From assembly GCA_030390025.1 (NCBI GenBank), contig CM059431.1, positions 150,538,001 to 150,602,000 of the forward strand: a DNA stretch of 64,000 bases, given 5' to 3'. How positions within the stretch are numbered: the first letter of the stretch is position 1; each line of letters opens with the position of its first letter. Under the pieces are notes generated by a model. That model did not search any database. It was not told the origin of the DNA and saw only the letters and a list, made by a program, of their open reading frames with translations. Source of the stretch: Squalus acanthias. Lineage: Eukaryota. Made by a program: the position numbers and the translations under genes. Below, one piece after another: positions 2,889 through 64,000 of the stretch.

Positions 2889-2958
2889 ATGGCACGGCCA
2901 ATAATTCTACAGATAAAGGACATATACTATCATTTTCTCGCAGTCTTTGGTATTCTCG
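2889..2958 (+). CDS. GPR139-like class A GPCR, gene 1, coding exon 1 (MARPIILQIKDIYYHFLAVFGIL)
   Basis: ATG at 2889, 70 nt, donor G|GTAAGT at 2959. Splices in phase 1 to 4548. Homologous exons occur at 19180, 21841 and 61672. Confidence 0.88.
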
Positions 2959-3464
2959 GTAAGTCAATGCATCCTGTTGTTTAATAGTTGTTAACGAACT
3001 CACTGTTAATGATTATGTTACAGATTCCGTGAAGATCATTTATCTACCGGGATAATTTGGTGAATATCAGCGGGAATCCGATCAGTTTGCCCGGCCGGTT
3101 AGGCGCTACTCTGGCCGGCAGATCTTGGGCACGGGGCAGTCAACTTCCCTCTCTACACTGAGGGAGGGCGAGGCTGATTCCACGGCCCCTCCAACAGTAT
3201 ATCGTCCATTAAAGAATGTGTTGCTTAGTGTCCATAGCATTTATTTCATTTGTCCCGTGGTTCCCTGTCTATTTTATGGTGATAATTGCTCGGACTGCAG
3301 CTACCTCCACCCAACAGCTGAATGTTTTATTGAATCCATATATTTCCAATAATTGCTGCGAAATTATATTTAACCGCTGTCTGAAGTTTGGTGGAAGGGA
3401 GTCGGAATTTGAGTCCCTCTATATTGAATATTCAATGTTTCATTCCTTTTAAATCAATTTTTTA

Positions 3465-4405
3465 AGATATAAATAAATGACCTGGATATTGGAATACAGT
3501 GTAGAATTTCTAATTTTGCCGATGACACCAAACTTGGTGGTGTGGCAAACAGTAGCTGCAACAGGACATAGAAAGGCTAGCAGAATGGGCAGACAAGTGG
3601 CAGATGGAATTTAATACAGAGAAGTGTGAGGTGATGCATTTTGGCAGAAGGAACAGGGAGAGGCAATATACACTCAGTGGCACAGTTTTAAAGATTGTGC
3701 AGGGACAGAGGGACCTGGGAGTTAATGTGCATAGGTCCCTGATGGTGGCGGGACATATTGAGAGAGTGGTTAACAAAGCATATAGGATCTTAGGCTTCAT
3801 AAATAGAGGTATTGAGTACAACAGTAGAGAAGTTATGCTGAATCTTTATAAAACGCTAGTTAGGCCACAACTGGAGTATTGCGTCCAGTTCTGATCACCA
3901 CACTTTAGGAAGGATGTGAAGGCCCTTGAGAGGGTGCAGAGGAGATTTCCCAGAATGTTTCCGGGGATGGGGGTTCTTGGCTACAAGGACAGGTTGAAGA
4001 AGCTGGATTTTGTTTAATTAGAGCAAAGGAGGTTGAGCGGTGATTTGATTATGGCGGGTTTGGATAGGCTAAACGGGGAAAGTCTGTTCCCAGTAGTTGA
4101 TGGTAAAAAGACTAAGGGACACAAATTTAAGGTTTTGGGTAAGAGATACAGGGGGGTGGTGAAGAAAAACTTTTTTACGCAGTGAGTGGTGAACACCTGG
4201 AACTCACTACCGACGGAAGTGGTGGAAGCGGAGACACTCAATGTTTTCAAGGGCTCACTGGATAGGCACTTGAGGGAAATAATCTTGTAGGGCTACGGGG
4301 ATAGCGGGGGGCGGATGAGACTGACTGGAGTGCTCTACAGAGAGCCGGAACGGACTCGATGGGCCGAATGCCCTCCCTCTCTGCCGTAATGTCTGTATGG
4401 CTCTT
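3465..4405 (+). mobile_element. 5'-truncated CR1 LINE (RT C-terminus and 3' tail) in the intron of gene 1
   Basis: FADDTKLGG, KCEVMHFG and LVRPQLEYCVQF motifs. The segment is absent from the paralogous introns. Confidence 0.9.
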
Positions 4406-4547
4406 TGACTCCTCAATGCTCGCCTATATGGCAAAAAAATCAATGTAGGTAACGCTAAGTAGGAACACATCTGAGCATTCCCCACAATAAGCTGTGATGT
4501 TTATCCGGGTGACCCTGTTAATAAACTCTTCTCCCTCTTCCTTACAG

Positions 4548-5422
4548 CGAACCTAGTAACAATCCTGATTCTCTCCAGAGGAAATTGCGGCCTTTCCAAA
4601 TGTATCTCGATCTACATGTTGGTCATGGCGACAGCAGATCTACTGGTCATCATCTTCCATATACTGGTGTTTCAGATTTTCTGTTACCACTTTCCGCATT
4701 CATTCCTGTACTACACTGCCGTGTGTAACTCCATTCATTACATCAATACCGTTACCCTGGATATGTCGGTGTGGTTTACAGTCTTGTTTACTTTTGACCG
4801 ATATGTAACTATATGTTGTCAGAAGTTTAAAACAAAGTATTGCACAGTGAGAACTGCGGCAACTGTTTTAACAACTGTCACTGTGCTGGTCTGTTTAGAG
4901 AATATCCCCTTTGCTTTCTCCTATCAATCTCAACGAATCATTAACAATGTTTCCTGGGGATGCCGCCCCAATGAAGCCTTTTATTCATCGCCTGCAGGCA
5001 TAGCCTATTTCCGCATTCAAAATATTTTAGTTCCATGGTTTGCTGTTGCTTTGATATTACTGTTTAATTGTTTGACAGTCAGACGCATTGTAGTCAGCAG
5101 TAGGGCCCGCAGGGGACTCCGGGGTCACTGCAGTGAGAATCAGAGCGATCCAGAGATGGAAAGCCGGAGGAAATCCATCATTTTACTCTTCACTGTATCG
5201 GGCAGTTTTATACTGTTGTGGTTGACATCTGTCGTGAGTAACTTGAAGAACAGCCTGGCCGTTTACTACAAAGGTGAATATGAAACCCCTGCATACATCC
5301 TGGCTGAAAGCGGATATATGCTCTTATATTTGAGTTCCTGTACAAACACCTGCATTTATGCAGCGACACAAACCAAATTCAGGCAAGATTTGGTGAAGAT
5401 GGTGAAATCTCCTGGACATTGA
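4548..5422 (+). CDS. GPR139-like class A GPCR, gene 1, coding exon 2 (spliced product 314 aa)
   Basis: Acceptor CTCTTCCTTACAG|CG at 4547/4548, in frame with ORF 4616-5422. Motifs: (A)NL in TM1, MATADL in TM2, FDRY in TM3, ECL2 Cys, NTCIY in TM7, and KFR helix 8. Confidence 0.9.
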
Positions 5423-6494
5423 TTCTGATATTGGTTAATAAAATGAAGAATTAAACCATAACTTCCTGTCCTAACTAGAGCTCAATTACAGCCCGTGTTC
5501 CGTTTTAGAATGGCAATCTTTCCCTTGGGACAAAAGCGGATTGTTCTTGTGAAAATGAACAGGTATCAGGAAATATTATTCCCACTTTGTGCCGTGTGTT
5601 TGATGTCTGCTGCTTTCCCCGTGTGAACATAATCGATTCCCGCTAAAACAGCGCCCTTCCCGCTCAAGATTCAAGGAGAACAGTCATGACGGAGCTTCAG
5701 CAGTGGAGTAGAACATGTGTGCGGTCAGCATTAACTACCTCACACAGCAGCTACTGGAATGAGACGCTCAGTTTAATTAACAGATAGACATTCCTTTAGT
5801 GTAGAAACAATGTGTTACAATGGTGTTTATTTGTAATTCTGTAATCTTGGTGTGAATGTTGCAGGCGCTGGACTCCCCATCAGACTCCGCCCCCCATTGT
5901 CACCTGGACCAATAGAACGGGGCCCTGTCTCCTGATCAGTGTTTAATGATGGAGACAGTAGGAACTTGACCCGTTAATGTGACATTAGACATCTTTGTTC
6001 ACAGATATTTACTGAAAATCTCAAATGTTCATCAGTTTGTTGGAATGTTATAAGAGGGGAAATGACTGTATATCCCAATTAGTCCTTCTCAGCGTTTACC
6101 CTCCAGCCGATCAAATAGTTCCAATCACTTTATCCGCCCGGTCTCAACATCAATTCAACCTATTTTTGTTCACACAATTTAGTCTCCAATTTTGACATAA
6201 TTTCTGCCTCTGTTACTTCCACAGCTTCACCAATCTCCATATAAAGAGGAGTCTCTGGCCACCCGTTCTAAATCTCTTCAATCCATTCCTTAATCTATAG
6301 CCGTTAGTTCCAGATCCTTCAAATAATGGCAGCAGTCTGCTTCTTTCTATTCTGTCCCGTACCTTCTTAACCTAAAGCACCTGGGCACAACTCGCCAAAA
6401 CATCTCATCCTGGTAACAATTCACAATCTAGTACAAGTCAGGTAAGTGTAGTAAAGACAGTTAATTGATTGCTTTCTCTTGGAGATGAAAGCGG

Positions 6495-9400
6495 TTTACA
6501 TAGGATATACAGCACAGAAACAGACCATTCGGCCCAACCAGTCCATGTCGGCGTTTAAGCTCCACTCGAGCCTCCTTTCATCTTTCCTGATCTAACTCTA
6601 TCAGCACAAACCTATATTCCCTTCTCCCTCCTATTCTTATCCAGCCTCCCTTCAAATGTGTCTATACTGTTTGCTGGAACCACTCCCTGTGGTAGCGAGG
6701 TTCACATCCTCACATTCTATTGGTAAGAACTTTCTTATGAATTCCGTATTTGATTTCTTGGTGACTATCTTACATTGATGGCCTTTAGTTTTGATCTTCC
6801 CCACAAGTGGAAACATTCTTTCTCTGTCTACTCTATCAAAACCTTTTCATATTTTAAACACCTCTATTAGGTCACCCCTCAGCCTTCTCTTTTCAATAGA
6901 AAAGAGACCCAGCCTGTTCATACCTTCCTGATAGGTATATCCTCGCAGTTCTTGTATCATCCTTGTAAATATTATTTGCACCCTCTCCAGTGCCATTATA
7001 TCTTTTTTATAATATGGCGACCAAAACTGTCCGCAGTTCTCCAAGGTGGTATTATTAAGGTTCGATACAAGTTTCGCATAATTCTCTACTTTTCAATTCT
7101 ATCCCTCTTGAATTAAACCCGAGTGCTTGGTTTGCTTTTTTATGTGTCGCTTGCATTTATAAACCTGCGTCGCTGGTTTTCGTGATTTGTGTATTTGTAA
7201 TTCAAGATCGCCTTGCTTTTCTCTCCCATTTAGATTCTTATTTTCCAAATAATATGAGACTTTCTTATTTTTCTTACCAAAATATAACGCCTCCCATTTA
7301 TCTGTGTTGAAATGCATTTGCCCTTTCTGCAAGTTTATTAATGACTTCTTGCTATTTGTTGCAGCCCTCCTCAGTATTGACTATCACAGCCGCTCCCTTC
7401 CCCCAATTTGGTGACATCCGCCAATTTAGAAATTGTGTTTTTGATTCCAAAGTCTAAATTGTTAACATAAATTGTGAACAAACATGGTCCCAGCACTGAT
7501 CATTGTGGGACCCCACTTTTCATATTCTGCCGCTCCGTATAGCTAACCTTTAGCCCTACTCTCTGCTTTCTGTCTTGAAGCCAGCTAGCTATCCATTCTG
7601 CTACTTGTTGCCTCACTCCGCATTCTCTGACCTTTTTCATTAGTCTGTTATGCAGTACTTTATCGAAGGCTTTTAGAAATCTCGAAAAATTATGTCTACT
7701 ACTTTACCCTTGTCAACGCTCTCTGTTACCTCTTCAAAGAATTCAATGATTGTGGTCAAACTAGACTTTCTCTTTTGAAATGCATGCTGACTAATCATTA
7801 TTATATTTTTAGCTTCCAGATGTTCTTCTATTTTTTCCTTTAGTAGGGATTCCATTATTTATCCTAACACCGATGTTAAGATGACTGCTCTATAGTCCCA
7901 TGGACATGTTCCATTTCCCTTCTTAAATATAAGTATTACTTTAGCTATCCTCGAGTACTTTTGAACAATACAGTTTCCCAACGAATTATTAAATATGTGT
8001 AATAGTGTCTATTCTGTCGCTTCCCTAGATTCCTTTAAAATGAACGAATGTAATCCGTCTGGAGCAGGGCATTTATCCTGTTTGAGTTCGATTAGTTTAT
8101 TTAATAGTTCTCCTTTTTAATTTTAAATGCGGTTATATCATTTCTAATGTCATTTTCCGATGTCACGTCTCCCTGACCGTCTCCCTGGTAAATACTGAAG
8201 TAAAGTAATTATATAATATTTCTGGCATTTCGCTATCGCTGCCATTGATTTTTTCCTGACCGTTCCTGAATGGCCGTATTCCCATCCCAAATTTCCTTTT
8301 TATTTATGTGCCTGTAGAATATTTTATTACGTTGTTTTATGTTCCTTACTAATTTAATCGCAATTCCCCTTTGCCTTCCTATTGTTTTTTTGACTTCTCT
8401 ATTATCTTCGCATTCTCCCTTGCCATGATCTCCCCTGTTGTCCATTTTCTTAGTGTATGCCTCTCCTTATCCTCAATTCTTCCCTTATGTCTTTATTCAT
8501 CCATGGCATCCCAATAGTGTTTAGTTTGTTCTTGATTTTTAGTGGAATATATTTTCCTGGTCCTGCTGAATAAAAGTTTCCCATTGTTGTTCTACATCAT
8601 TGCTTGCCAATATTGTTGTTACATTTTATGTTCCCAATTTCTATTCTCAGCCCCTCAAAATCGCATTTTCTCCAATCTATTACCCTGTTCGTCGTCATAC
8701 TTATGTTCTTCTCAATTATTACCTGAAATCGTATTACATTATGGTCACTATTACCAAGGTGCTGTCCCACTTTTACTTCTCTTATCTGCTCTGGTTCATT
8801 CCCCATTACTCGATCCAGTAGCTAATTCTCCCTTTTCGACTTGAAGGGGAATCATGCTTGAAAATTTGCTCGAATTCTTTGACGACGTAACAAAAGGGTA
8901 AATAAAGGGGAACCAGTGATGTGGTGTATTTGGACTTCCAAAAGGCATTTGATAAGGTGCCACACAAAAGATTACTGCACAAGATAAAAAATCACGGGAT
9001 TGGGGTAATATACTGGCATGGGTGGAAGATTGGCTATCTAACAGAAAACAGAGAGTTGGGATAAATGGTTCATTCTCGGGTTGGCAATCAGTAACTAGTG
9101 GTGTTCCGCAAGGGTCAGTGCTGGGACCCCAACTCTTCACAATCTATATTAACGATTTGGAGGAGGGGACCAAGTGCAATATATCCAAGTTTGCTGACGA
9201 TACAAAGATGGGAGGAAAAGCAGTGAGTGAGGAGGACATAAAAAACCTGCAAAAGGACATAGACAGGCTAAGTGAGTGGACGGAAATTTGGCAGATGGAA
9301 TATAATGTTGGAAAGTGTGAGGTTATGCACTTTGGCAGAAAAAAATCAAAGAGCAAGTTATTATCTAAATGGAAAGAAACTGCAAAGTGCTACAGTACAA

Positions 9401-11560
9401 AGGGATCTGGGGGTCCTGGTGCATGAAACACAGAAGGTTAGTATGCAGGTACAGCAGGTGATCAGGAAGGCCAATGGAATCTTGGCTTTTATTGCAAGGG
9501 GGATGGAGTATAAAAGCAGGGAAGTCTTGCTTCAGTTATGCAAGGTGCTGGTGAGGCCACACCAGGAATACTGCGTGCAGTTTTGGTTTCCATATTTAAG
9601 AAAAGATATACTTGCTCTCGAGGCAGTTGAGAGAAGGTGCACTCGGTTGATTCCGGAGATGAGGGGGTTGACTTATGAGGAAAGGTTGAGTAGGTTGGGC
9701 CTCTACTCATTGGAATTCAGAAGAATGAGAGGCGAACTTATCGAAACATATAAGATTGTGAGTGGGCTTGATCGGGTGGAGGCGGGGAGGATGTTTCAAC
9801 TGATGGGTGAGACTAGAACTAGGGGGCATAATCTTAGAATAAGGGTCTGCCGTTTCAAAACTGAGATGAGGAGAAACTTCTTCACTCAGAGGGTAGTAAA
9901 TCTATGGAAATTGCTACCTCAGAGAGCTGTGGAAGCTGCGAAATTAAATACATTTAAAACGGAGATAGACAGTTTCCCAGCTGATAAGGGAATTAAGGGT
10001 TATGGGGAGCGGGCAGGGAAGTGGACGTGAGTCTAGCTTCGGATCAGCCATGATCCTATTGAATGCGGAGCAGGCCCGAAGGGCCATATGGCCTACTCCT
10101 GCTCCTACTTCTTATGTTCTTATGTTCTTATGTTACCTATTGGGTTCGAAAGGAGTCCTTTGCACATAGTAGGAACTCCATTCCCTTATCCCCTTTACCT
10201 AGCTCTTCTGCCCAATTAATTTCGGGGCAGTTTAATCTCATGTTTCGTTTTTACTAATTTCTCTCATTTGTTTCCAAATTTCTTCCTTCATCTCTTCTTC
10301 CACCATTAGTGGTCTGTAGACTTCCTCTAGGAGTGTGATTCAACCTTCATTTTCTTTTATCTCTATGCACTTGGATTCTATTTCTGTCTTACTGATAGCT
10401 GCGTAATTTTTTCTACTGCCATTATGTTACCTATAATAAGCACAGCTACTCCATCTCCCTTTTCCCCTCTCTATCTTTTCTAAATATAACCTGCAATGTT
10501 CAATTCCAAGTCCTGATTTTTCTGTAGCCATGTCTTTGCATTCCCTACAATATCTGGTTCCTCGCAACGTATTAGTGCCTCCAGTTCCCCTGTTTTATTA
10601 CGGACATAGTGCACATTGCTGTACAGGGTGTTTAACTCATGCTTAATTGCAGTTCTTGTCACTTTATTTTTAACCATATTTTAACTCTCTAGTTCAATAA
10701 CTCTATTTATTAACTAGAGTCTATGCCCTCCCTTAGTTTATTCCTTCCTATGCTCTCCGTTCCTGTTTCGTTTATATTTAGTCTGGTTTAATTTCTTATA
10801 GATCCCTTTTTACGAATGCTTCGTGCATTCAGATAAACAGCCTTTAATTTTAACTTTTTACCATTATTCCCTGCTTTCTCCTCATTCGCTGATGCCCTAT
10901 TACCGTTAAGCTCTCTGTCCTTTCCTGTCACACTCTGCTTATCTTTACCCAAATCGATACACTGCTCAATTGCCTTGACTTTTAGTTTAAATCCCCATTA
11001 ACAGTCCGTGTTATTCGATTCACCAGGATACAGGTCCCAGCCCGGTTTAAGTGGAGCCCCTCCCAATGGAACAGCTCACTCTTTTCCCAGAACTACATTC
11101 ATTTTCACTCCCCCCACTCGAATGGCCTCCTACACCACGCTACCGTGGTCAGTTTGCTCATCCATACTGCAGACTTCGCCCTCATCCACACAGGCAGCAA
11201 GAACCTCATACCTGCTGAATACGTACTAAGCCGAGGCTCCTCCAGCACTGCACCTGGGGTCCCCTTACCTGCCTGAGTCACAGTCACACCCTCCTCTCCC
11301 TGACCACTAGCCAGGCCTGTGGCACTACCTAACCTAAGGGGTGTGACTGACTCCAGGTTCAAAGTTACCAGGTAACTCCCCCCCCGCCCTGATGCCTCGC
11401 ACTGTCTGCACCTCGGTCTCCTGTTGAACAACTCCGTGCTAAAGTTCCTCGAGGTGCAGGCACTAACTGCAGACATGGTCGTCAGGGATCGCGATGCTCG
11501 TCACAAACATTCCACTTGATGCTGTCACGGCACACAACCTGCACTTCCCTCACTATACAT
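6495..11560 (-). mobile_element. Older, nearly full-length degenerate CR1 LINE (ORF1 remnant, EN, RT, tail), interrupted at 8840-10133
   Basis: ORF1-like VTPLR...GQGEEGVT (11105-11476). EN fragments at 10480-10677 and 8597-8806. RT fragments at 6847-7855. Tail near 6500. Confidence 0.85.
8840..10133 (+). mobile_element. Younger 5'-truncated CR1 LINE nested in the opposite orientation
   Basis: [10 protein letters not shown] and FADDTK RT motifs in ORFs 9022-9426 and 9272-10030. Ends in a (TTCTTATG)n tail. Confidence 0.92.
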
Positions 11561-12949: not shown

Positions 12950-13282
12950 AGAGGGATGGAGTCGGTGACTATAGAATGGAGTTTGTGGAGGGGACTGAAA
13001 ACAATGGCTTCGGTCTTCCCAAAATTTATTTGGGGAAAATTTCTGCTCATCCAGTACTGGATGTCGGACAAACAGTTTGACAATTTAAAGACGGATGGAG
13101 GGCTCGAGAGCAGTGGTGATGAGGTAGAGCTGGGTGTCGTCAGCGTACATGTGGAAACTGACGCCGTGCTTTCGGATGATGTCGCCAAGGGGCAGCATAT
13201 AGTGGAGAAATAGGAGGGGGTCAAGGATAGATCTTGTGGGTCCTCAGAGGTAATGATGCAGGAGTGGGAAGAGGGAATTTCG
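12950..13282 (-). mobile_element. L2-clade LINE RT fragment
   Basis: An alternative minus-strand frame reads [16 protein letters not shown], followed by LSDIQYWMSRNF..KTEAIVF. Confidence 0.8.
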
Positions 13283-14384: not shown

Positions 14385-14940
14385 AATGACACACACAGCC
14401 TGACGTCACACAGAGTGCAGACTGACGTCACACAGACTGATGCCACACAGACTGCAGACTGATGTAACACAGGCTGCAGTCAGAGTCACGCAGACTGCGG
14501 ACAGAGTAACAAAGACTGCGGACAGAGTAACAAAGACTGCAGACAGAGTCTAACAGACGGCAGCCTGAAGTCACACAGATTGCAGAGTTACACAGACTGC
14601 AGACTTAAATCACACAGACGGCAGAATTACGTCACACTGACTGCAGACAGAGTAACACAGACTGCAGTAAACGTCACATAGACTGCAGACGGTCGTCACA
14701 CTGACTGCAGACAGACGTCACACAGAATGTAGACTGACGTCACACAGGCGGTAGACAGACTCGCACAGATTGTAGATTGACGTCACACAGACTGCAGACA
14801 GTCGCACAGACTGCAGACAACTTCACATAGACTGCAAACTGACGTTACACAGACTGCAGAAAGCGTCACACAGACTGCAGACAGAGTCACACAGACTGCA
14901 GACCGACGTCACACAGAACGCAGACAGATTCACACAGACT
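14385..14940. repeat. Minisatellite, about 20-22-bp unit (CACACAGACTGCAGACTGACGT / CACACAGACTGCAGACAGAGT)
   Basis: Tandem units are visible directly. Several contain TGACGTCA. Confidence 0.85.
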
Positions 14941-15031
14941 TGGCTTTATCAGGGCAGCTGTGGGCACGGAATGAAGCGGCTGCAGTTCCCACCAGAGCCA
15001 CTCAGTGTCGCTATTTCCGTCGCCCATCAGA

Positions 15032-15104
15032 GCCCCGATAGCTCAGTCGGTAGAGCATCAGACTTTTATTCTGAGTGTCCAGGCTTCAAGTCCCTGTTCG
15101 AGCG
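15032..15104 (+). tRNA. tRNA-Lys(TTT), probably a pseudogene
   Basis: The 73 nt match vertebrate tRNA-Lys3 (GCCCGGATAGCTCAGTCGGTAGAGCATCAGACTTTTAATCTGAGGGTCCAGGGTTCAAGTCCCTGTTCGGGCG) with 5 substitutions. These include two in the acceptor stem and GGTTC>GCTTC in the B box. Confidence 0.85.
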
Positions 15105-17389: not shown

Positions 17390-18284
17390 TTAATTAACCA
17401 ATATCAAAATCAATGTCCAAGGGGATTTCACCACCTTCTTCAGCTCTTCATTGAATTCGGTTCGGGGTCGCTGCATAAATACACATGTTTCTACAGGAAC
17501 TCAAATACATGAGCATATATCCGCTTTCAGCCAGAATGTATTCAGGGGCTTCATAATCATCCTTGTAGTAAACGGCCAGGCTGTCCGTGAAAATACTCAC
17601 GGTAGCTGTAATCCACAAGAGTAAAAAGCTGCCCAATATAGTGAAGAGTAAAATGATGGATTTTCTCCGGCTCTCCTCTCTGGATCGCTTTGATTCTCAC
17701 TGCTGTGGCCCCGGAGTCCCCTGCGGCCCCCACTGCTTACTACAATGCGTCTGACTGTCAAACAATTAAACATTCATATCAAAGCAAAAGTCAGCAATGG
17801 AACTAAAATACTTCGCAGTTGGAAGAACGATACACATCCAGACGATGAAAAAAAGGCTTCATTGGAGCGGCAACCCCAGGAAACATTGTTAATGATTCGT
17901 TGAGATTCATGGGAGAAACGAAAGGGGATATCCTCTATACAGAACAGCACAGTGACAGTTATTAAACCTGCTGCGGCAGTTCACACTGTGCAATACTTTG
18001 TTTTCAACTTCTGACAACATATCGCTAGAAATCGGTCAAAATTGAACGAGACTGTGAACCACACCGACATATCCAGTGTGACAGTATTGATGTAATGAAT
18101 GGACTTACACATGGCAGTGTAGGACAGGACTGAATGCGGAACGTGGTAACAGAAAATCAGAAACACCAGTAACTGGGAGATGATGACGTAAGATCTGCTG
18201 CCGACATGGCCACCATGTAGACCGAGATACATTTGGAAAGGCCGCAATTTTCGCTGGAGAGAATCAGGCTTGTCAGTAGGTTCG
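17390..18284 (-). pseudogene. GPR139-like GPCR pseudogene (gene 2), exon 2
   Basis: Acceptor TTACAG|CG at 18285/18284. Collinear with gene 1. One-nt deletions at about 18190 and 17675; in-frame TGA at 17981-17983 and 17774-17776. Confidence 0.9.
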
Positions 18285-19110: not shown

Positions 19111-19180
19111 TGAGAAAACCAAAGGCTGCAAGAACATGATAGTATATGTCCTTTATCTGTAGAATTATTGGCCGTGCCAT
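19111..19180 (-). pseudogene. GPR139-like GPCR pseudogene (gene 2), exon 1 (MARPIILQIKDIYYHVLAAFGFL)
   Basis: 70-nt homolog of 2889-2958. The donor reads A|GCAAGT instead of G|GTAAGT. Confidence 0.88.
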
Positions 19181-19209
19181 TTTTAGAAGATTGTGTGAAT
19201 TGGCCATCA

Positions 19210-21412
19210 TTTATATTAGAGTAGGGTCGCCATCGTTTATATAAGAGTAGGGTCACCACCAGTAATTTTAGAGTAGGGATATTTCCTGTAAATTTAGACT
19301 AGGTTTACCACGAGTAATGTCAGAGACGGGTCACCACCAGTAATGTTACAGTAGTGTCACCACCAGTAATGTTTGAGTCGGTTCACCACCAGTAATGTTA
19401 GAGTACGGTCACCGCCACTAATGTTAGAATAGGGTCACCACCATTAATGTTAGTGTAGGTTCACCACCAGTAATGTTAGAATAGGGTCAGCACCAGTAAT
19501 GTTATTGTAGGGTCACTGCCAGTAATGATAGATTAGGGTCACCACCAGTAATGTTAGATTAGGTCACCACCAGTAATGTTATGAAGGTTCACCACCACTA
19601 ATTTCACAGTACATTCACCACCAGTATTGCTCGAGTAGGTTCGCCCCCAGTAATGTGAGCCTTGGGACATCAACACTAATGTTAGTGCAGCCTCAGTGCC
19701 AGTACCGTTCGAATAGTGTCACCACAAGTAATGTTATACTCAGTTCACCACCAATAAGGTTAGAGTAGATGTAACTCCAGTAATGTTCTTATCAGATCAT
19801 CAGCAGTAATGTTAGAGTAGACTCACCATCATTAATGTTAGAGGAGGGTCACCAGCAGTAATGTAAAAGTAGGTTCACCGCGAGTAATGTTAGTAGGATT
19901 ACCATCAGTAATGTTAGAATAGAGTCACCACCAGTAATGTTAGTTTAGAATCACCACGAGTAATGTTAAAATAGGGTCACCACCAGTAATGATAGAGTAG
20001 GCTCACCACCAGGAATGATAGGGTCTGGTCACCACTATTAATGTTAGACTAGGTCCACCACCATTAATGTTAGTGTTGGTTCGGCAGCGTTAATGATAGT
20101 CAAGGTTCACCACCAGTAATGTTAGAATATATTCTCCACCAGTAATGTTAAAGTAGGATACCCGACAGTAATATTATATATGTGTCACCACCAATAATGT
20201 CAGCGTTGGTTCACCACCAGTAATGTAATAGTTGGAACACCGGCACTAATGTCAGTGTAGGGTCACCACCAATAATGTTAGACTAGGTTTAACACCGGTA
20301 ATGTTAGAGTCGGGTCAATACCAGTAATGTTAAAGTAGGGTCATCAGCATTAATGTTAGAGAAGGTTCATCACCAGTAAAATATAAGTAGGATCACCACC
20401 AGTAATGTTAAAGTATTGCCATTACCAGTAATGGTAATGCAGATTCCCCGTCAGTAATGTTGGAGTACAGTCATCACCAGTGATGTTAAAATAGACTCAC
20501 CACAAGTAATGCTAAAGTAGGGTTACCGCCTTTAATGGTCGAGTAGGGTCCCCAGCAGTAATGTTAGAGAAGAGTCACCACAATTAATGTTAGTGTAGGG
20601 TCACCATCAGTAATGTTAGAGTAGGGTAACCACCAGTAATGTTAGAGTAGGGTCACCAGCAATAATGTTAAACGAGGGCAACACGGTGGCATAGTGGTTA
20701 GCACTGGTGCCTCACAGCGCCAGGGACCCGGGTTCGAATCTGACCTCGGGTGACTGTCTGTGTGGAGTTTGCACATTCTCCCCGTGTCTGCGTGGGTTTC
20801 CTCCGGGTGCTCCGGTTTCCTCCCACAGTCCAAAAATGTGCGGGTTAGGTTGATTTGGCTATGATAAATTGACCCTTAGTGTTAGGGGGGTATTAAATAT
20901 GTGGGGTTTCGGGGGTAGGGTGGGATATGTGTACTGTGGGGATTAAAGCAGGGACAGGGTACTGGATTTGGATGATCAGCCATGATCGTAATGAATGGTG
21001 GAGCAGGCTCGACGGGCCGAATGGCCTACTCCTGCTCCTAGATTCTATGTTTCGATGTTAATGTCACCACCAGTAATGTTACAGTATGATCACCGCCAGT
21101 AATCTTAGAGTAGGGCCACCAGCATTAAAGTTAGAGCAGATTCACCAGAAGTAATGTTGAAATAGATTCACCGCTACTAATGGTAGAGTAGGGACCCCAG
21201 CAGTAATGTTGGAGAAGAGTCACCACAATTAATGTTAGAGTAGGGTCAGCACCAGAGATATTAGTTTAGAGTCACCACCAGTAATGTTAGAGTAGGGTCC
21301 CCAGCAGTAATGTTACAGTATAGTCACCACCAGTAATGTTAGAGTAGAGTCCCCACCAGTAATGTTACAGTAGAGTCACCAGCAGTAATGTTAGATTAGG
21401 GTCACCACCAGT
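19210..21412. repeat. Second array of the 26-bp unit, same orientation as 704-2512, interrupted by a SINE
   Basis: Same CACCACCAGTAATGTTAGAGTAGGGT unit. About 1.8 kb once the SINE is removed. Confidence 0.95.
20676..21059 (+). mobile_element. tRNA-derived V-SINE (HE1-like) with a CR1-type tail
   Basis: A box (TGGCATAGTGG), B box (GGTTCGAATC), V-domain core TGTGTGGAGTTTGCACATTCTCCCCGTGTCTGCGTGGGTTTCCTCCGG, and a tail shared with the CR1 copies in this window. Confidence 0.9.
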
Positions 21413-21649
21413 TTTTTTTAGATCCTTTTCACAACAGCAGTGTTAGCGCCGATTCATCTTCACAATGTAAAACCAATTTTAAATATGTAATGGATGACAG
21501 AGGATTTCACCCGATTATTATGAGGCCCCAAGAACCTAACGCCTTGACCGGGAGTGGTGCTCCCTTCAGAAATCACATCTCTGGCGCAAAGATCACTTTC
21601 CGATCATTAATTTTAAAGGGCGGATTTTCATGTACTGAGGGACACATTT

Positions 21650-21770
21650 TCCCCATTGGCATCCCCGGTGCACTGTAGCGAAAAATTGTTTGTTACGTGA
21701 TTGTAAGAAACGTCAGTTATTGTGGAAGCTGATTTTTTCACGGGGCACCGAGTGTTCTATAAAGGGGGAG
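21650..21770 (+). promoter_or_regulatory. Candidate promoter of GPCR gene 3: ATTGG at about 21655 and TATAAA at 21758-21763
   Basis: Paralogous to 2700-2815, with the same TATA-to-ATG spacing. Confidence 0.6.
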
Positions 21771-21840
21771 CATTTCCGGATCTCAGATACACTCCAGTCA
21801 GAAACGTGAACCGGACAGAATTCACACAACCTTCTATAAA

Positions 21841-21910
21841 ATGGCACGGCCAATAATTCTACAGATAAAGGAAATTTACTATCCAGTTCTCGCAGCATTT
21901 GGTATTCCCG
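21841..21910 (+). CDS. GPR139-like class A GPCR, gene 3, coding exon 1 (MARPIILQIKEIYYPVLAAFGIP)
   Basis: ATG at 21841, 70 nt, donor G|GTAAGT at 21911. Confidence 0.9.
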
Positions 21911-22716: not shown

Positions 22717-23636
22717 CGAACCTACTGACAATCGTGATTCTGTGCGGAGGAAATTGCGGCCTTTCCAAATGTATCTCTGTCTACATGGTGGCCATGGCAA
22801 CAGCAGATCTACTGGTCATGATCAACAATGTGATAGTGTATCACACTTTTACATATCACTTTCCAGGTTCTTTCCTGTCCTACACCGCCGTCTGTAAGTT
22901 AATTGTGTACGTGAATTCTCTCGCACTAGATATGTCGGTGTGGCTTACAGTCCTGTTCACATTTGACCGATTTGTAGCTATATGTTGTGAGAAGTTTAAA
23001 ACAAAGTATTGCACAGTCAAAACGGCTGTCGCTGTTGTAACAACCGCCACTGTCCTCTTCTGTTTAAAGAACATCACCTTTTGGTTTGCATATGAACCTG
23101 AGCGAATAACTAACAATGTTCCCTGGGGATGTCGCTCCAGAGTGGACTTTTTTCTATCAGCTGCAGGTACAGCGTTCTTCTGGTTACAAAGTATTTTTAT
23201 TCCATGGCTACCTTTTGCTTTGATATTTCTGTTTAATTGTTTGACAGTCAGACGTATTTTAGTGGCCAGCAGAGCCCGCAGGAGACTCCGGGATCACAGC
23301 AGTGAGAATCAGAGCGATCCAGAGATGGAGAATCGAAGGAAATCCATTATTTTACTGTTCAGTGTATCAGGTAGTTTTATAGTGTTGTGGCTGACAGCTG
23401 CCGTGAGTTTTTTAACTACCAGACTGACAAACCCCGAGCATAAGCGAGGCGATTATGCAGCCCCTGCGTATGTCGCCACAGTAACCGGATATTTACTCAT
23501 GTATTTGAGCTCCTGTACAAACACCTGCATTTATGCAGCGACCCAAACTAAATTCAGGGAAGAGCTGAAGAAGTTGGTGACATCTCCTTGGGCATTGATT
23601 CTGACTTTGGTTAAATTAAATGTAAAATCAAACTGA
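22717..23636 (+). CDS. GPR139-like class A GPCR, gene 3, coding exon 2 (spliced product 329 aa)
   Basis: Acceptor CTCTTCCTTACAG|CG at 22716/22717. Open to TGA at 23636, with seven hydrophobic segments and ANL, MATADL, FDRF, NTCIY and KFREEL motifs. Confidence 0.93.
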
Positions 23637-50624: not shown

Positions 50625-51248
50625 TCACTCAAAACGACTGGTGGAATCATCCAGTCGCGTTTCCTCTTCTTCACAGGGCAGAAAACTGTTTCCGTTCATG
50701 ACTTTTTCTCTGAGATATTCCTCAATGCATTTCACTGCTGTGCTGTCCACTGCAGCGTCGAACATGTTGTCAAACAGGTGGTGCTGATGCTGCAGGATCC
50801 AGTGCAAGTCTCCAGCGCCGTAGACACAGATACCGTGGCGGTGAATACCTGCGCAGGGCGAGTAGCTGCCTCCCTCCTTCCCCACACGTTCCAGGACCTG
50901 CCATTTTATCAACCGCGGGACGACAGGGACATTTGGGGGACGGGAAGGGCCACTAAAGTGGCCAGAGCCGGGAACGCCGGGCATTCTGTGGATGGTGGCC
51001 CAAATGTGTTCATCGGGACTGTAGGTATCTTCAGACCACTTTAAGAAATGTTGGATTTCGGGGCTCCTCAACACGTGGTTAACAAATTCCCTAGTAACCG
51101 CATAATACGCGTTTCCCGCGAAAACCGTGATATTGTTTAGCTGTTCTTTCAACTGACCAGTCCTCCAAACAACGCTGCCAACCCGATATCGGTACTGCCA
51201 CCGTCTCTGAAAGTGACACAAAGAGGAAGGATTATGAGCACCAATCAT
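50625..51248 (-). pseudogene. C-terminal half of a GCNT-family (GT14, core-2/I-branching) beta-1,6-N-acetylglucosaminyltransferase; fragment, pseudogene or terminal exon
   Basis: FAGNAY, DTYSPDEHIWATIHRMPGVPGS, RLIKW, PCAGIH..GICVYGAGDL and HHLF..FD motifs are characteristic of GCNT1/3/4-type enzymes. No N-terminal half is visible in the window. Confidence 0.8.
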
Positions 51249-51497
51249 TCGCTGTTAAAACTCACAGTAAAAGTGCCTGCAACAGAACCGTTTCAATGAA
51301 TTCGCATCTTGTCTCCACGCAGGGCGAACGGGAAACGTCTATTTATGCTGATTTGAATGAATACTTCGGAGTAAGATGTAAGGACAAGCGAGCCCAACCA
51401 GGAACCATTGCTTTATTATGTGGGAAAATAAATCGGTTTATGTTGTGAAACTCCACTCGCCATTAACGCATAATTATATTCATTAATAGATGTGGGT

Positions 51498-51650: not shown

Positions 51651-51651
51651 G

Positions 51652-51743
<92 letters not shown>

Positions 51744-52332: not shown

Positions 52333-52339
52333 ATGTCTA

Positions 52340-53440: not shown

Positions 53441-53559
53441 TCGTGGATGAATGTATGAATGAATGGAACGATGAATGGATGGATGGCTGGATGGATGAAT
53501 GAATGGATGAATAGATGGATGGAATTCGGGGAGGGAGGTGTGCCTTCCATTTTCCATCT

Positions 53560-56500: not shown

Positions 56501-57182
56501 GATCCCGGCAGACTGGAAAACTGCTAAAGTAACACCCTTATTTAAAAAGGGCAGTAGACAGAAGGCTGGAAGCTATAGACCGGTTAGCCTAACATCTGTG
56601 GGAGGTAAAATTTTGGAGTCCATTATTAAGGAGACAGTAACGGGATATTTGGATAATCATAATTTAATAGGACAAATTCAGCATGGTTTTATGAAGGGGA
56701 AGTCATGTTTGACAAATTTGCTGGAGTTCTTTGAGGAAGTAACACACAGGGTGAATAAAGGGGAACCAGTGGATGTGGTGTATTTAGACTTCCAAAAGGC
56801 ATTTGACAAGGTGCCACATAAAATATTATGGCTTAAGATAAAAAACCACGGGATTGGGGGTAATAGTCTGGCATGGATAGAGGATTGGCTATCTAACAGA
56901 AGGCAGAGAGTTGGGATAAATGGTTCATTCTCAGACTGGCAATCAGTAACTAGTGGTGTTCCGCAGGGGTCAGTGCTGGGTCCCCAACTCTTTACAATCT
57001 ATATTAACGATTTGGAGGAGGGGACCGAGGTTAACATATCAAAGTTTGCAGATGATACTAAGATGGGAGGGAAAGTAGTGAGTGAGGAGGACATAAAAAT
57101 CTGCAAGGGGACATAGACAGGCTAAGTAAGTGGGCAGAGATTTGGCAGATGGAATACAATACTGGAAAGTGTGAGGTTATGC
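53560..57182 (+). mobile_element. Young CR1 with 5'UTR, ORF1 (SGNH esterase) and a 3'-truncated ORF2; same subfamily as 31987-36530
   Basis: ORF1 53966-54895 (HVGTND, DGLHL). ORF2 fragments 55075-57116 nearly match the minus-strand copy. Similarity stops abruptly after GKCEVM. Confidence 0.93.
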
Positions 57183-57916
57183 TCTTATCTCTTCTTCATA
57201 ACATTACTGAATTCCATGTCTCCTACAGTCTCTGTGTTTACTTAACACAACATTCCATTACTTCAGCATATTCTAACAGAGTTTAGCCAGGGAGCATAAT
57301 TTCCCATCCTGCTTTGCTTCTCAGCCATTCGCCATTTTGGACAGGCTTTTTAGGTTTTTAAAGTACAATTTCACATATTACAGTTATTTAACAATGGTTA
57401 CAAAATCTTAACAATGTTTACTAAATTCTACTGGTACACTCTATCCTGCAACCTTTTTAAACAGAGCGTTGTGAGACTATCCAAGGCAGAATGGAATTAG
57501 GTTGTGAAGCCCAGACCACGGGGAGCAATTTTAACTGTGGGCACCTTCGGGGTGAGTGTCCGGGAAACCCCCATGTTCAGCTCAGCGTGGAGCAGGGGGA
57601 ATTTAAGTCTTTATTAAATCCAGGACCGTTTCCCACCCAAAACTGGTGGAAGCCATTACAGCACTCATCGGCGGGAGCAAAGATCGGGTTGTGAAGCCAG
57701 GACAGTCGGAGGTATGGGAATGGCCCCGGCATAAAATCAATATTGGGTAGTGGATTGAGAAACCGATGTGGGCGCTTAGAAGGAGAGGTAAGTCCGGGCT
57801 GGGGATGACTAAGCATTCCTTGCAGGGCCCAATGAAGCAGTCCTGCTGCTCCTGGCCTTCCTATGATTTCACAGTTGAGTGATTTTGCAAAACTTAGGTT
57901 AGCTTCTACTGGCCAC

Positions 57917-59245
57917 TGCATAGGATATACGGCACAGAAACAGGCCATATGGCCCAGCCAGTCCATGCCGGCGTTTAGGCTCCACTCAAGACTCCTTCCG
58001 TCTTTCCTCATCCAACTCTGTCTGCATAACCCTCTGTTCCCTTCTCCCACTATCCTCCCCTTAAATGCATCTATACTATTTGCCTCAACTACTCCATGTG
58101 GTAGCGAGATCCACATTCTCTCCACGCTCTGGGTAAAGAAGTTTCTTCTGAATTCCTTATTTGATTTCTTGGTGACTATCACATATTGATGGCCTCTAGT
58201 TGTGCTCTCCCCCAAAAGTGCAAAAACTCTCTCCTTACCTACTCTATTAAAACCTTTCATAATTTTAAAGATTTCAATTAGGTCACCCCTCAGCCTTCAT
58301 TTTTGAAGCGAAAAGAAACCCACCCTGCTCATTCTTTCCTGATCGGTATACCGTTGCATTTCTGGTATCTTCCTTGTAAATCTTCTCAGCACCCATTCCA
58401 GTGCCTCTATATCATCATTATTATATGGCGACCAGAATTGTACGCAGTACTCCAAGAATGGTCTAACCAGGGTTCGATACAAGTTTAGCATAACTTCACT
58501 ACTTTTTAAATCTTTCACTCTAGAATTAAACCCTAGTGCCTGGTTTGCTTTGTTATGGCCTTGTTAACCTGTGTCACTACTTTTAGTGATTTATGTATTT
58601 GTACTCCGATATCCCTTTGCTCCTCCACCCCACCCAGGCTCGCACCCTCCAAGTAATAAGTAAGCTCCCTATTCTTCCTACCAAAATGTAATGCCTCACA
58701 TTTATCTGTGTTGAATTTCATTTGCCAATTATATGCCCATTCTCCAAGTTCCTTAATGTCTTCCTGTAATTTGTTGTAGTCCTCCTCAGTATTAAGTATC
58801 CCCGCCAATTTGGTGTTATCCACAAATTTAGAAACTACCCAACTTCTGCCACTGTGAATAGCTACCATTTAGTCCTACACACTGCTGCCTGTCTTGAACC
58901 CAGCTAGCTATCCATCCTGCTACTTGTCCCCTGACTCCTCATACACTGCCCTTATTTATTAGTCTATTATGTGCTCCCTTATCGAAGGCCTTTTAAAATC
59001 TAGATATATTAAATCTACTGCATTACCCTTGTCTATTCTCTCTGTTACCTCTTCAAAAAAATCAATGAGTTTGGTCAAGCAAGGCTTTCGCTTTTGAAAT
59101 CCATACTGACTATTCATTATTATATTTTTGGCTTCTAGATGCTCTTGCATTTTATCCTTTAGTAGGGATTCCATTATTTTACCGACCACCGATGTTAAAC
59201 TTACATGTCTATAGTTCGCTGGACATGTTCTATCGCCCTTCTTAT
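57917..59245 (-). mobile_element. Degenerate CR1 RT and tail
   Basis: ORFs 58959-59189, 58533-58868, 58297-58518 and the start of 57577-58260 are consecutive RT pieces. Confidence 0.85.
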
Positions 59246-61671
59246 TTTCGATGTGGTTTTGCTAATAATATGCCACAAACCAGAAGCCTTTGTGTTGAAG
59301 TCAATAAAAGGGAAAATCCGGTCGAGGCCTATTATTGGAGTCCTATTCAATATTCCTCATTTTACACAATAGCCCAAAGTTAAATCGGATCTCAAAATTT
59401 CGTCCCCACGACGATTACATCACCGGGCCGTTGAATGTTGATGTAAAGCAGAACCCTTGCTGCCGTGAACAGGCGACCGTCCCGTGCCTCGATTAATGTA
59501 TGTCATGATGCTGCGCGATGGGAACGATTCGGAATTCTGGCACAATTCACTTGCCCACCATTTTAACTCTCCCCCGCTCGCACTGACACCGCGGGGCCGC
59601 CAGGGATTTAAGTCCACCTCCATAAATGGGCCAATCAACTTCTGCAGGGGAGCAAAATGTAATGTAATGGGTCAGCGGCCCGTTATGCACCCGCACAATT
59701 TTCAATTTCATTGAAATCAATATTGAAGAATAGGTTAGATGGATGCTTGAAGAAAGAAGGGTGAAGAAATATTGAACAGAGGCTGCCCAGCTAGTAAAAA
59801 CCTGGAATTGTAGTAGAAATCTGGAACTGGAGTAGAATTCTAGAATTGGAGTAAATCTGTGGGTCGCTCTCCTAAAAGTTTCTGGATCGCGGGGACAATT
59901 GAAGCTTTCAAGACTGAGATCGATAGATTTTTGGAGGCTAAGAGTATGAAGAGACATGGTGCTTAATCAGATAAGTGAAGTTGAGATTCACATCAGCCAT
60001 GATCTAATTGAATGAGGGAGCAGGCTCGAAGACCTCAATGGCCTCCACCTGTCCTTATGTAATCTTCCAAATAAATGTCAATGATTAGCATTCGGGCTGT
60101 AGAGAGAGAAATCTACGCCAGTGAGTGTGTTTCACAGGTAGTGGAGGTGAATCATAAGTTATTGAGAGCTGCTTAATGGCGGCCAGATTCTTCAGATTTT
60201 TTATTTGTGTTGATTTATTATTACTGAAGCGGCAATGCAGGTGTGACCCTCGGCAGTGCGTGTAGGGGAGCAATCCAACTGTTGAAGCCCTCACGGCCGA
60301 TTCAGATCTGTACTCGGACACGGACAGCTGAGGCTCTGCCACCCAGGTCAAAGTTCAATCACCCCAGCTAGTGAAGCCCCCTCTAAGGCTGCCATCTGCA
60401 GCTTAACTGCCTCTCCCTCTGACAGCAGCAAGTCACCAGACGAGAAAGTGACCGGATCCGATGCAACGCTGGTTATACATTCGTCCCGATTTTAGTCAAT
60501 GGACAGTAATATTGGGCGATGTGTAAAACTAGCGTTCCTCCCGATCCCGTCAGTCTCTCGTCGAGCGAGATAGTTAAACATTACCCCCACTTAAAGTCAT
60601 CTCCCTTTGAAGTTGTCTGGTGTGGTTTGATTTCCCAACGATATTTCAGGACTGCCCGTGTATATTTGAATATGATATTGATCATAATTTTGTGGCGTTG
60701 ACACCTATTCAAATGGCAGAAGGAAGTCGGCTGCCAACTGATTTTTAGAAGCATTTCAGATAGCTCGCTGGGCTTCCGATTCCATCTGATTTTAAAGGTT
60801 TTTGAATATACTTTTTTGGTTGAGGTAGCCTAGTGGACTTGAACCAACAATATGATAATCGGTATTGGTGGACACCAGATGTCATTGAATGGCCACACAG
60901 AACATCTGAAAGGAAAGCAGAACATTGAGCAATCTGACCTTTCTGGGGTCAAACGTTAAATCAAATTATCTGATCCCCGTTGACATTATAAGGTGAAGGG
61001 TGGACCTGATTTACAATCCAACGTAAGCAGCGTTACTCATTCATATGGAAAATACCATCACAAGATCTGGAATGAGATTCGATCCGAGGTCCCATTTGTC
61101 CTCTTAGGTGAATGTAAAAATCACATGGTACTTTGTGGAGGACCTGGGGTGCTCTCCTGGTGTCCATACCTACATATATCTCTCAACCAAAATCACTGAA
61201 AGCAGATTATCTGATCATTTATCTCTTTGCCGTATGACAACAGTGACTACCTTCAAAAAGTACTTGGTTGGCAGTACACCATTTGGTTTGGCCTGAGGTC
61301 CTCAATGGCGCAGGAAAATAATGCCTCTTTAATTTGTTTCTGTACATTTACGGACTGGCACTTAACACCTAACGCATGTGAAAAATATACATAAGTAACT
61401 CTTGTTCGATCAAAGTCAGGTGTCTTTTTAGCTTTTATGTTTCAATCTGTGAACTAGCTCTATAAAATGTTGTTGTCGATCAGTGGAAACTGAAAACAGC
61501 AGATTATGTGATGGCTGAAATAACAGGGACTAATTGGGGTTATGCAACATGTCTGTCCCATTGGAGCATACCATGATGTATATATATATATATGTGTTAT
61601 CTTGGAAAGCATCGTGTCAGCACAGCCGTGAGACTCAGTGTACAAACAAAAATCATCTCGTCGCACGTAAA

Positions 61672-61741
61672 ATGAGATTGCAGACATTTCTATTGGCGAA
61701 ACGTATTTATTATCCCATCCTCTCAGCCGTCGGTACCCCTG
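61672..61741 (+). CDS. GPR139-like class A GPCR, gene 4, coding exon 1 (MRLQTFLLAKRIYYPILSAVGTP)
   Basis: 70-nt exon with the IYYP.L...G.P motif, donor G|GTAAGT at 61742, and a (TA)n tract about 90 bp upstream. Confidence 0.85.
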
Positions 61742-62056
61742 GTAAGTCAATATAATATTTGCATTTGCTTTAGAACTTGTCGAACTGTAACCCTACTGCT
61801 TCTGTGATGATGAAACATTTTTACCTGGATGTCTCCATTATCTAAGACTAGAAATCACTGTTAACAATGATAACCCGCCTATATCAGAATGTTATTTAAG
61901 AATACCCCCTCGGAATAACAGCAGCAATTAAATTTGGGGTAGAAAATCATTTTTGGGAGGCAACACAAAATGGGCGAGAAAGCATGGGCCGCCTTTTGTA
62001 ACCGACGCCCCATATTTAGTTCTATTGCAGTCAGCCAAACTCAATATTAGGCGGAA

Positions 62057-62635
62057 TATTGGCAGAACACCTCCGTTCAGTCCGTGCGCGTGACCCCGAG
62101 ATTCTGGTCGCCTATCACTTTAATTCTCCACTCCACTCCCACTTTGATCTCTCCGTCCTCGGGCCTCTTACACTGTTCCAACGAAGCTCAACGTAAGCTC
62201 GAGGAACAGCACCTCATCTTTCGATTCGGTACTTTACAGCCTTCTGGACTCAACATGGAGTTTAACAATTTCAGACTGCACCCTCGGCCCCGATGTTTTC
62301 TTCTTTCTCTCACAGGGCAGCTGTTGATGATTCTGCCATTGCCATTTACACCTCATCGAGAATCATCTTTTTTTTCTTAACTTGACCCATTACCATTTCC
62401 TTTGCACCATCATCCCTTTTGTTTTTTAAGTTCTCCTGCCTACTATCCTATCACAGAACATCCCTTTGTTCTTTCCTCCCCTCCTCCCTTTCCCTGACCC
62501 ATACTTGCTTAAAAATCTGTCACTTCTCCAACTATCTTCCAGTTCTGACGAAGGGTCAACAACCTGAAACGTTAACGCTGTTTCTCTCTCCGCGATGCTG
62601 CCGGACCTGTTGAGTGTTTCCAGCATTTTCTGTTT
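62057..62635 (+). mobile_element. Penelope-like element 3' fragment (GIY-YIG C-terminus and pLTR)
   Basis: AEHLRSVR..DPE..VAYHFNS and GLLHCSNEAQRKLEEQHLIFRFGTLQPSGLN, followed by a pyrimidine-rich pLTR. Confidence 0.85.
62540..62580 (+). ncRNA. Minimal type-I hammerhead ribozyme motif in the Penelope pLTR
   Basis: GTT-CTGACGA-AGGGT(caaca)ACCT-GAAACGTT-AAC contains the CUGANGA and GAAA cores, stem II, a palindromic stem III and a 3-bp stem I. Confidence 0.65.
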
Positions 62636-62744
62636 TTGTCAATGGAACTGAATATCAGGCGCTGCGAATAACGGGCGGCCGAACCGATACCGCCCGTATT
62701 TCGCTAACGCCCGAAACGAATTACTCGGTCAGAGTTTTTAAAAT

Positions 62745-63092
62745 GTAGTCTCGGGATATGGGCGTCGCTGGCAAGGCCAGCAGTGAAAGCCCATCGCTGA
62801 TTGCTCCGAAACAACTCAATGGCTTTGTCGGCCACTTCAGTGGGCCTTTAAGAGTCAACGACTTTGATGTAAAACTGGAGTCACATATTGGCCAGAACGG
62901 GTAAGGACGGCAAGTTTACTCCAATTCCAACAGCTTCATGATCACTTTTACTGATACCTTTTATTATTTCCAGAATGAAACTTATTTCAAAATGTCAAAC
63001 TGCAATGCTGAGATTTGTACTCGCCTTATCTGCATTATCACTCAAAACCCCTGCAGTGCTAGTTTAGCGACATAACTACTACACCACCATAC
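62745..63092 (-). mobile_element. Degenerate tRNA-derived SINE with a LINE-type tail
   Basis: Minus-strand head GGTGGTGTAGTAGTTATGTCGCTAAACTAG resembles an A box, and the body resembles common shark interspersed repeats. Recalled from memory, not searched. Confidence 0.5.
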
Positions 63093-63845
63093 CGAATACT
63101 GGCCATAATTAAATTCTTGGTAGCACGATGGTGCTCTCAAAGGCACTTTGAAATATTTCTTCGGACACTAAGTGAAGCAAGGCTGAAAAGATCAGGCGCT
63201 TTCTCTATCACCTCCTACTGTAACGTTATTGAAATTGCTGATGATTACAATTTGAGTTATTTCCCAACTATATGATGATGCGGACTAGATTGACCATTTT
63301 GTGCAAAATCATGTAGCTTCTCGAAGCACATTGCGGTCCGTTAATTGTCATGACCCCAGCAGGTAACTTAACTTCGCTGCAGAACTTTGAAAGCGGTGGG
63401 AATATTGGGCGTAATTTTAACTTTAACATATAATGAAAGTAAAGGGGGGAATAGCAGGCTTGATCACTGGGTACGCGCTCAGTCGTTATTAGTTATGGAA
63501 CAGACTAATCTGAAAGGAGCTGGTTAATACAGGGGCGGGGGTATAATTTAACTCACGGCCGTGGTGCTAAATGGTCGACATGGGATTAGCCGCCCCTTTT
63601 ACACTTAGCCCCAATTTCCTTTTACAGTGAAGTAAATGTTACGGAAAATCGGGCGTGGCGTCGTCCAAAACTAAAATTACCCTCAGGTTCCACAATACCA
63701 GTTTAATTCAGCTTGTTTAATGCCCAGATCTCTGTTTTCAAGGAAGGATTATGTGATCAAGTTGTAAATTACTGTGATTATTCACCCTGTGTGAGTGAGG
63801 CTAATCAACAATTTCTGGATTATTTTCTCTCTCTCATTCTCACAG

Positions 63846-64000
63846 TTACCCTGCTGGCAATTGTCATCTTATGGAGAGGAAAGTGCGGTCTATCCAAATG
63901 CGTCACTCGCTACCTGGTGGCCATGGGAATAGCAGATCTGACCATCGTTATCCTTTATGTAATACTGTGGCAGATTAATCGTATTTACTTCTTCTTTACT
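63846..64000 (+). CDS. GPR139-like class A GPCR, gene 4, start of coding exon 2 (continues past the window end)
   Basis: Acceptor CTCTCATTCTCACAG|TT at 63845/63846, phase 1. Reads (V)TLLAIVILWRGKCGLSKCVTRYLVAMGIADLTIVILYVILWQINRIYFFFT with no stop. Confidence 0.88.

Follow-up and report, generated by a model that had tools for sequence, protein, structure and literature searches.

What kind of receptor system do sharks encode in groups of small two-exon genes such as the one found on contig CM059431.1 of Squalus acanthias? The stretch analysed here (the window) comprises 64,000 nucleotides of that contig (assembly GCA_030390025.1, positions 150,538,001 to 150,602,000 of the forward strand), and it carries four copies, A to D, of a gene of the G protein-coupled receptor (GPCR) type. 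An earlier reading of the sequence (the original prediction) took them for a tandem birth-and-death cluster of orphan GPR139-like receptors, possibly part of a sensory repertoire. Our analysis points to a real, very large and apparently undescribed expansion, a known kind of system on an unexpected branch, with roughly 100 or more family genes per annotated chondrichthyan genome that appear to have been copied as small two-exon cassettes. We tentatively regard these receptors as sensors of chemicals.

Results

With exon 2 of copy B as the query, 1867 protein matches were obtained among 4250 candidates; the best 120 of them were all elasmobranch models, mostly named 'probable GPR139', with a top identity of 77%. 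A profile built from 40 chondrichthyan sequences gave at least 2316 clusters (90% identity) at E<=1e-80, of 8000 candidates scored, a count drawn from protein models, some of them chimeric or isoforms, and not from the Squalus acanthias genome. The cut-off was placed beyond the best non-chondrichthyan relative tested (1.4e-70), and the 120 clusters listed were all chondrichthyan. Matches named over several searches came from 21 chondrichthyan species, which would amount to about 110 clusters per species on average, if no other species contribute. For Heterodontus, a hand count gave 99 distinct rows (34/120, 62/120 and 3/25 in three listings), spread over many chromosome-scale contigs. A search of the ESM Atlas led to these clusters again, under their RefSeq names, and sequencing run X2 gave 1637 contigs at 80% likeness, mostly less than 95% alike, which fits many paralogues and gives no copy number. 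The predicted lineage-expanded, uncharacterised birth-and-death family is thus well supported; its size lies far above the four copies of the window and speaks against a family of a few copies genome-wide.

The chondrichthyan models that RefSeq and UniRef call 'probable G-protein coupled receptor 139' belong to the same family, with up to 77% identity and the same motifs; they are also mislabelled as allatostatin-A, FMRFamide, capa, vasopressin V2, CCR3 or mu-opioid receptor-like. All of these names are automatic, and none of the models is more than 77% identical to copy B among the matches listed. In 83 of the 120 closest gene models, 23 residues precede the junction residue, as exon 1 of the window predicts. 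In many RefSeq models the N-terminus is long and odd or segments occur twice, which suggests that annotation often misses the 70-nt exon or fuses neighbouring copies, so that public counts are unreliable. No description of the expansion was found in the open-access full-text literature. The accessible parts of PMC12208981 and PMC12294341 hold nothing relevant to it, and GPR139 labels are absent from the supplements of PMC8455134 (12/24 files), PMC11372145 (4), PMC11806052 (1), PMC13188829 (8) and PMC6504862 (1).

In the window itself, which has 43% GC and many frames resembling long interspersed nuclear elements (LINEs), a tblastn search with the two long receptor frames as queries found exactly four receptor copies. 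Copies A and B match Pfam 7tm_1 at E 3e-18 and 9e-19 (66.5 and 68.4 bits; curated cut-off 30.5), so the receptor frames are not chance. As predicted, the first coding exon measures exactly 70 nt from the ATG in 4/4 copies, and a phase-1 intron lies within transmembrane helix 1 (TM1), directly 5' of the N1.50 codon, in all four. Copy C has the donor GCAAGT, and the other three have GTAAGT; every acceptor ends in ACAG, and the introns are 1589 (A), 826 (C), 806 (B) and 2104 nt (D) long.

Copy B (plus strand; exon 1, 21841..21910; exon 2, 22717..23636) is intact, and predicted splicing yields 329 amino acids (aa). Copy A (plus strand; exon 1, 2889..2958; exon 2, 4548..5422) would be spliced into 314 aa with all seven helices open. 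It has lost P5.50, and compared with B and C it lacks 1 bp near 5411, a deletion that puts another C-terminal tail in place of the one present in B and most relatives. Copy C, on the minus strand (exon 1, 19111..19180; exon 2, 17390..18284), is a pseudogene with three frameshifts (near 18192, 17677 and 17468) and two stops (near 17983 and 17776). Copy D (plus strand; exon 1, 61672..61741; start of exon 2, 63846..64000) is cut off by the window end, has T instead of N at N1.50 and belongs to another subfamily, its best stored relatives being 56-66% identical. The original count of four paralogs therefore stands, with B intact, C dead and D partial; A, which had also been called intact, is not fully so, given its tail deletion.

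Coding DNA identity is 87% between A and C, 80% between A and B and 78% between B and C, while D is distant; recent and old paralogues, one of them dead, are thus clustered, as birth-and-death evolution implies. A strict head-to-tail tandem array is ruled out by the inversion of C and by the 38 kb that separate D from B, and of the predicted tandem cluster the clustering is what holds. In one of four sequencing runs (X1, RNA by guess), contigs at 80% likeness cover both exons and the 3' flank, with none upstream of the TATA box and few in the intron, and make up a small share of words. The joint of the predicted intron is absent among the 15 of 43 contig joints listed, which bears neither way on splicing.

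The comparison of the ligand pocket with the signalling face rests on 26 pocket positions, set by residue numbering and not by structure coordinates, in pairs matched at 70-80% overall identity. In the first shark set (1045 pairs), 38% of pocket positions differ, against 32% of other outer-helix and 18% of inner positions; in a replicate with 81 other shark proteins (1893 pairs; chosen from 108 further ids as 300-360 aa long, with the position list fixed), the figures are 50%, 32% and 12%. In amphibian orthologue pairs (39), 1.4% of pocket, 21% of other outer-helix and 20% of inner positions differ. Six positions that contact ligands in GPR139 form 92 signatures in 120 shark proteins and 73 in the replicate 81, against 1 in 20 amphibians. 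Between A and B, 14/26 pocket codons differ, and on the inner side the ratio of non-synonymous to synonymous substitution rates (dN/dS) is 0.33. By this comparison, the single-copy gene conserves its pocket as for one ligand, and the shark family scatters its pocket and keeps its G-protein face. A variable pocket with a conserved inner face fits many ligands and one signal.

The nearest relatives outside the family place its origin. In a search of 50% representatives, a gap set the family apart from its outer relatives, which reached 26-34% identity and were salamander, coelacanth, teleost and amphioxus proteins. The salamander protein represents a gene for which 20 amphibian species contribute a single cluster apiece and the sturgeon one; no amniote or teleost stood among its 25 matches, from a word-indexed search that cannot prove loss. 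An IQ-TREE tree of 42 rows, 26 of them chondrichthyan and picked for spread, and none a true GPR139 or GPR142, united the chondrichthyan rows in a clade (support 92/90) with a protein of the chimaera Callorhinchus nested within. The amphibian/sturgeon gene (4 rows) is the sister of these 26 rows (support 100/99), and two coelacanth/teleost groups form the next branches. The latter are probably the GPR210 subtypes of Rinne et al. 2019 (PMC6504862), and the accession spacing suggests that the coelacanth entries UniRef H3B118 and H3BBB8 probably represent two of them. According to the accessible part of that paper, GPR210 of coelacanth, gar and teleosts comprises low-copy orphans beside GPR139 and GPR142; its text contains 0 occurrences of sharks or cartilaginous fish.

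The amphibian/sturgeon gene (for example Pleurodeles XP_069092602.1) resembles the shark family in its short N-terminus and in the missing P7.50, and differs from it in having a single cluster for each species among 20 amphibian rows, an invariant pocket, a retained P6.50 and basic residue at 6.51, and no ICL1 (intracellular loop 1) cysteines. It is in its own right a conserved, single-copy orphan GPCR of all three amphibian orders and the sturgeon, with N for D2.50 and an invariant pocket, misnamed GPR139 by RefSeq.

How close, then, is the family to GPR139? A family profile, which included five bony-vertebrate relatives, has human GPR139 as its best solved match (5e-29; next, 8e-22), and the amphibian and coelacanth relatives, too, have GPR139 as their best solved match (3e-13 and 2e-18, respectively). 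Copy B alone reaches human GPR139 with 23 bits in phmmer (E 4e-4), below CCKB, PrRP and melatonin receptors. By these measures, family members are distant cousins of GPR139 and no orthologues: the profile's best match is GPR139, but B alone gives 4e-4. Human GPR139 (PDB 7VUG, 9M42) and GPR142 are like the family in having two exons and lacking the NPxxY proline; GPR139 is unlike it in being single-copy and keeping the TM6 proline. Its intron presumably lies at the same TM1 position and phase as that of the family. The accessible part of PMC7318219 describes GPR139 as a single, strongly conserved two-exon gene with about 70% human-zebrafish identity, and provides the six residues of its Trp/Phe site (E3.32, F3.33, H5x43, W6.48, R6.51, N7x38), which we mapped through the profile alignment. 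Copies A and B keep only W6.48, 120 relatives keep a mean of 1.5/6, and the amphibian proteins keep F, W and N with K for R. Orthology to GPR139 is therefore out on identity (E 4e-4), pocket (1/6 residues retained in B) and copy number (four in the window, at least 2316 clusters in the family), and so is a one-to-one relation to a known receptor; the name GPR139-like is apt at the level of the clade.

The motifs of the family are mostly inherited. In A and B, NTCIY replaces NPxxY and TM6 lacks its proline, in agreement with the original prediction. However, NTCIY as a shark novelty is ruled out by human GPR139, whose TM7 reads NFFLY in the alignment, and by the single-copy amphibian relatives, where P7.50 is missing as well. 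A short N-terminus as a shark novelty is likewise ruled out, as those relatives have 23-25 residues before the junction residue. On this comparison both traits are ancestral. P6.50 is present in GPR139 and in 20/20 amphibian proteins, and missing in about 98% of the closest shark set, 84% of the deeper set and three coelacanth-group proteins. Copies A, B and D keep the predicted R/G-G-x-CGLSKC motif of ICL1; in C, the residues preceding CGLSKC are S-E-N.

For exon 2 of copy B, the AlphaFold model (predicted local distance difference test score, pLDDT, 88) shows a helical bundle with a hairpin in extracellular loop 2 (ECL2). The seven-helix fold, the D/E-R-Y/F motif and the TM3-ECL2 cysteine pair assign the receptors to class A. 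Fold searches (Foldseek, VIA-align) gave generic class A ties at Z of about 24, and GPR139 was not among the matches listed. The DRF motif, W6.48, the TM3-ECL2 cysteines and the inner face are near-invariant across deep subfamilies, including the chimaera. Cysteines 37, 42, 113 and 122 of copy B (ICL1, ICL2) are also near-invariant in the family (81/81 in the second set), and the two in ICL1 are missing in the amphibian relatives; together the four are a possible lipid-attachment or metal site.

Copies A and B have about 370 nt of upstream DNA in common, with a TATA box about 80 nt before the ATG; including exon 1, they align at 73% over 826 nt, and their flanks are alike for kilobases downstream. 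The putative promoter and 5' untranslated region of A occupy 2518..2888 (TATAAA at 2806-2811) and those of B 21484..21840 (TATAAA at 21758-21763), all on the plus strand. Each is preceded by a 26-bp minisatellite in gene orientation, at 706..2482 upstream of A (about 69 copies, TRF) and at 19203..21412 upstream of B (with an interruption at 20670-21064), and 26-bp units in the window are confined to these two arrays. The similarity of C to A stops about 20 nt above the ATG of C, where the array of B starts in the orientation opposite to C; the promoter of C is thus absent, and copy C would have arisen or been rearranged via an inversion that removed it. Upstream of D, neither the 26-bp array nor a promoter of the A/B type was found, so the array is not universal in the family.

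Copies A (2889-2920), B (21841-21872) and C (19180-19149) do not differ in their first 32 coding bases, although the A-B dS is 0.43, and relatives vary in the matching stretch. Synonymous divergence is lower on the inner side (0.32 vs 0.58). Gene conversion is a possible explanation for both observations. Elsewhere in the window, a 21-bp minisatellite lies at 14392-14940, between A and C, and an open frame at 50628-51254 (minus strand) matches Pfam Branch (E 1.6e-10) and encodes the C-terminal part of a core-2/I-branching glycosyltransferase. The frames upstream of it are broken and run into GATA/GAAT repeats; it is probably a pseudogene fragment.

Discussion

We propose that the family forms a sensor repertoire by which sensory or barrier epithelia detect diverse chemicals from outside, a reading to which we give a probability of about 45%. 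The cassette consists of the 26-bp array, the TATA promoter, the 70-nt exon, the seven-helix exon and a common 3' flank, the anatomy observed in A and B. Such cassettes would have spread by unequal or ectopic recombination, and an inverted duplication would have given rise to C without a promoter. As their N-terminus is minimal, the receptors would bind ligands in the helical pocket, beneath an ECL2 hairpin that the conserved TM3-ECL2 cysteine pair fastens. Ligand preference would differ from paralogue to paralogue, and all would use one G protein, by analogy with GPR139 Gq, making the whole a combinatorial sensor. Since the known ligands of the clade are aromatic amino acids and aromatic-ended peptides (accessible parts of PMC8557429, PMC7318219 and PMC6367278), amino acids, peptides or related solutes are our best guess for the cues. 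As to tissue, chemosensory cells of nose, taste or skin, the gill and the gut are guesses.

Like the shark family, the vertebrate OR, TAAR, V1R, T2R, FPR and MRGPR repertoires are clustered, evolve by birth and death, and have a short N-terminus and a variable pocket. Their origin is unrelated to that of the family: A and B match only 7tm_1 (PF00001) at E<=0.1, and no match to the OR, TAAR, V1R, V2R or T2R profiles was found. The small known inventory of the catshark counts in favour of our proposal, with 8 OR, 3 ORA, 3 TAAR, 2 TARL and about 32 V2R genes in the accessible part of PMC11979771. Among sensory receptor families that study covers only OR, ORA, TAAR and V2R, and it has cartilaginous fishes smell almost only with V2Rs.

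Several points weigh against our proposal. The excess of pocket over other outer positions was not significant in the first set (p 0.093), though it was in the deeper set (p 0.002); the compared pairs are not independent and mix species, and the 26 positions, based on general knowledge of class A receptors, were settled once the alignment had been viewed. Positive selection was not found: between A and B, the proportion of non-synonymous differences in the pocket (pN) is 0.27, against a synonymous proportion (pS) of 0.33 for the whole gene or 0.55 for the pocket. The three alignable genes of the window give no pocket dN/dS >1, which leaves room for relaxed constraint. Since its split from C, copy A has accumulated 24.5 non-synonymous and 5.5 synonymous changes, about the neutral rate, and it may be decaying or retuning. 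No expression evidence for this locus was found, and the sensory function of the original prediction gains indirect backing from pocket variability.

It is on these points that mostly genomic drift would build: a cassette beside a satellite and LINEs is easily copied, its pocket relaxes and few copies matter. One of four copies in the window is dead, another carries a frameshift in its tail and has changed at a near-neutral rate, LINE-like frames are dense and the pocket dN/dS does not exceed 1. Yet the inner face, the DRF motif, W6.48 and the TM3-ECL2 cysteines have stayed near-invariant over deep subfamilies, the chimaera included; the pocket is more variable than its lipid-facing neighbours in 2/3 sets; and A has kept its frame through seven helices, where C took five lesions and promoter loss. 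We consider drift improbable as the main story. Receptors for the animal's own diversified signals, whether pheromonal, reproductive or neuropeptide, seem more improbable still. Protostome sister receptors did diversify alongside neuropeptides (accessible part of PMC8557429), and GPR139 is a brain receptor (likewise PMC7318219); but at least 100 paralogues with rapid turnover are unlike conserved hormone-receptor pairs, and it is the single-copy amphibian gene that gives the picture of a fixed endogenous ligand.

The closest competitor keeps the idea of a repertoire and moves it to immunity. Formyl-peptide and Mas-related receptors detect microbial or damage-derived peptides and metabolites, and the shark family may comprise innate-immune sensors of this kind on leukocytes or mast-like cells. 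The same variable pocket and fixed inner face would be expected, and aromatic-ended peptides are ligands of the ancestral clade (accessible part of PMC8557429). However, the four supplements of a shark immune single-cell study (PMC11372145) hold no GPR139 or GPR142 labels, an absence in which naming may hide the family. We regard this function as possible though rather unlikely.

Whatever their function, about 100 variants per annotated species under one automatic name contradict the view of cartilaginous fishes as GPCR-poor, which the accessible part of the whale shark paper words as a relative paucity of GPCRs (PMC8455134). An old puzzle is now testable, as existing catshark tissue RNA-seq could tell whether the family is olfactory, immune or neither, and experiments could approach the ancestral ligand through the single-copy sister gene of amphibians. 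A bolder and doubtful version of our sensor proposal would make the family one more, so far unrecognised group of vertebrate chemoreceptors, drawn from the GPR139/142/210 clade ahead of the split of chimaeras and elasmobranchs, forming the largest chemoreceptor repertoire of sharks and rays and expressed sparsely in the nose or in chemosensory cells of taste and skin. If true, this would overturn the view of sharks as GPCR-poor animals that smell with about 35 V2Rs.

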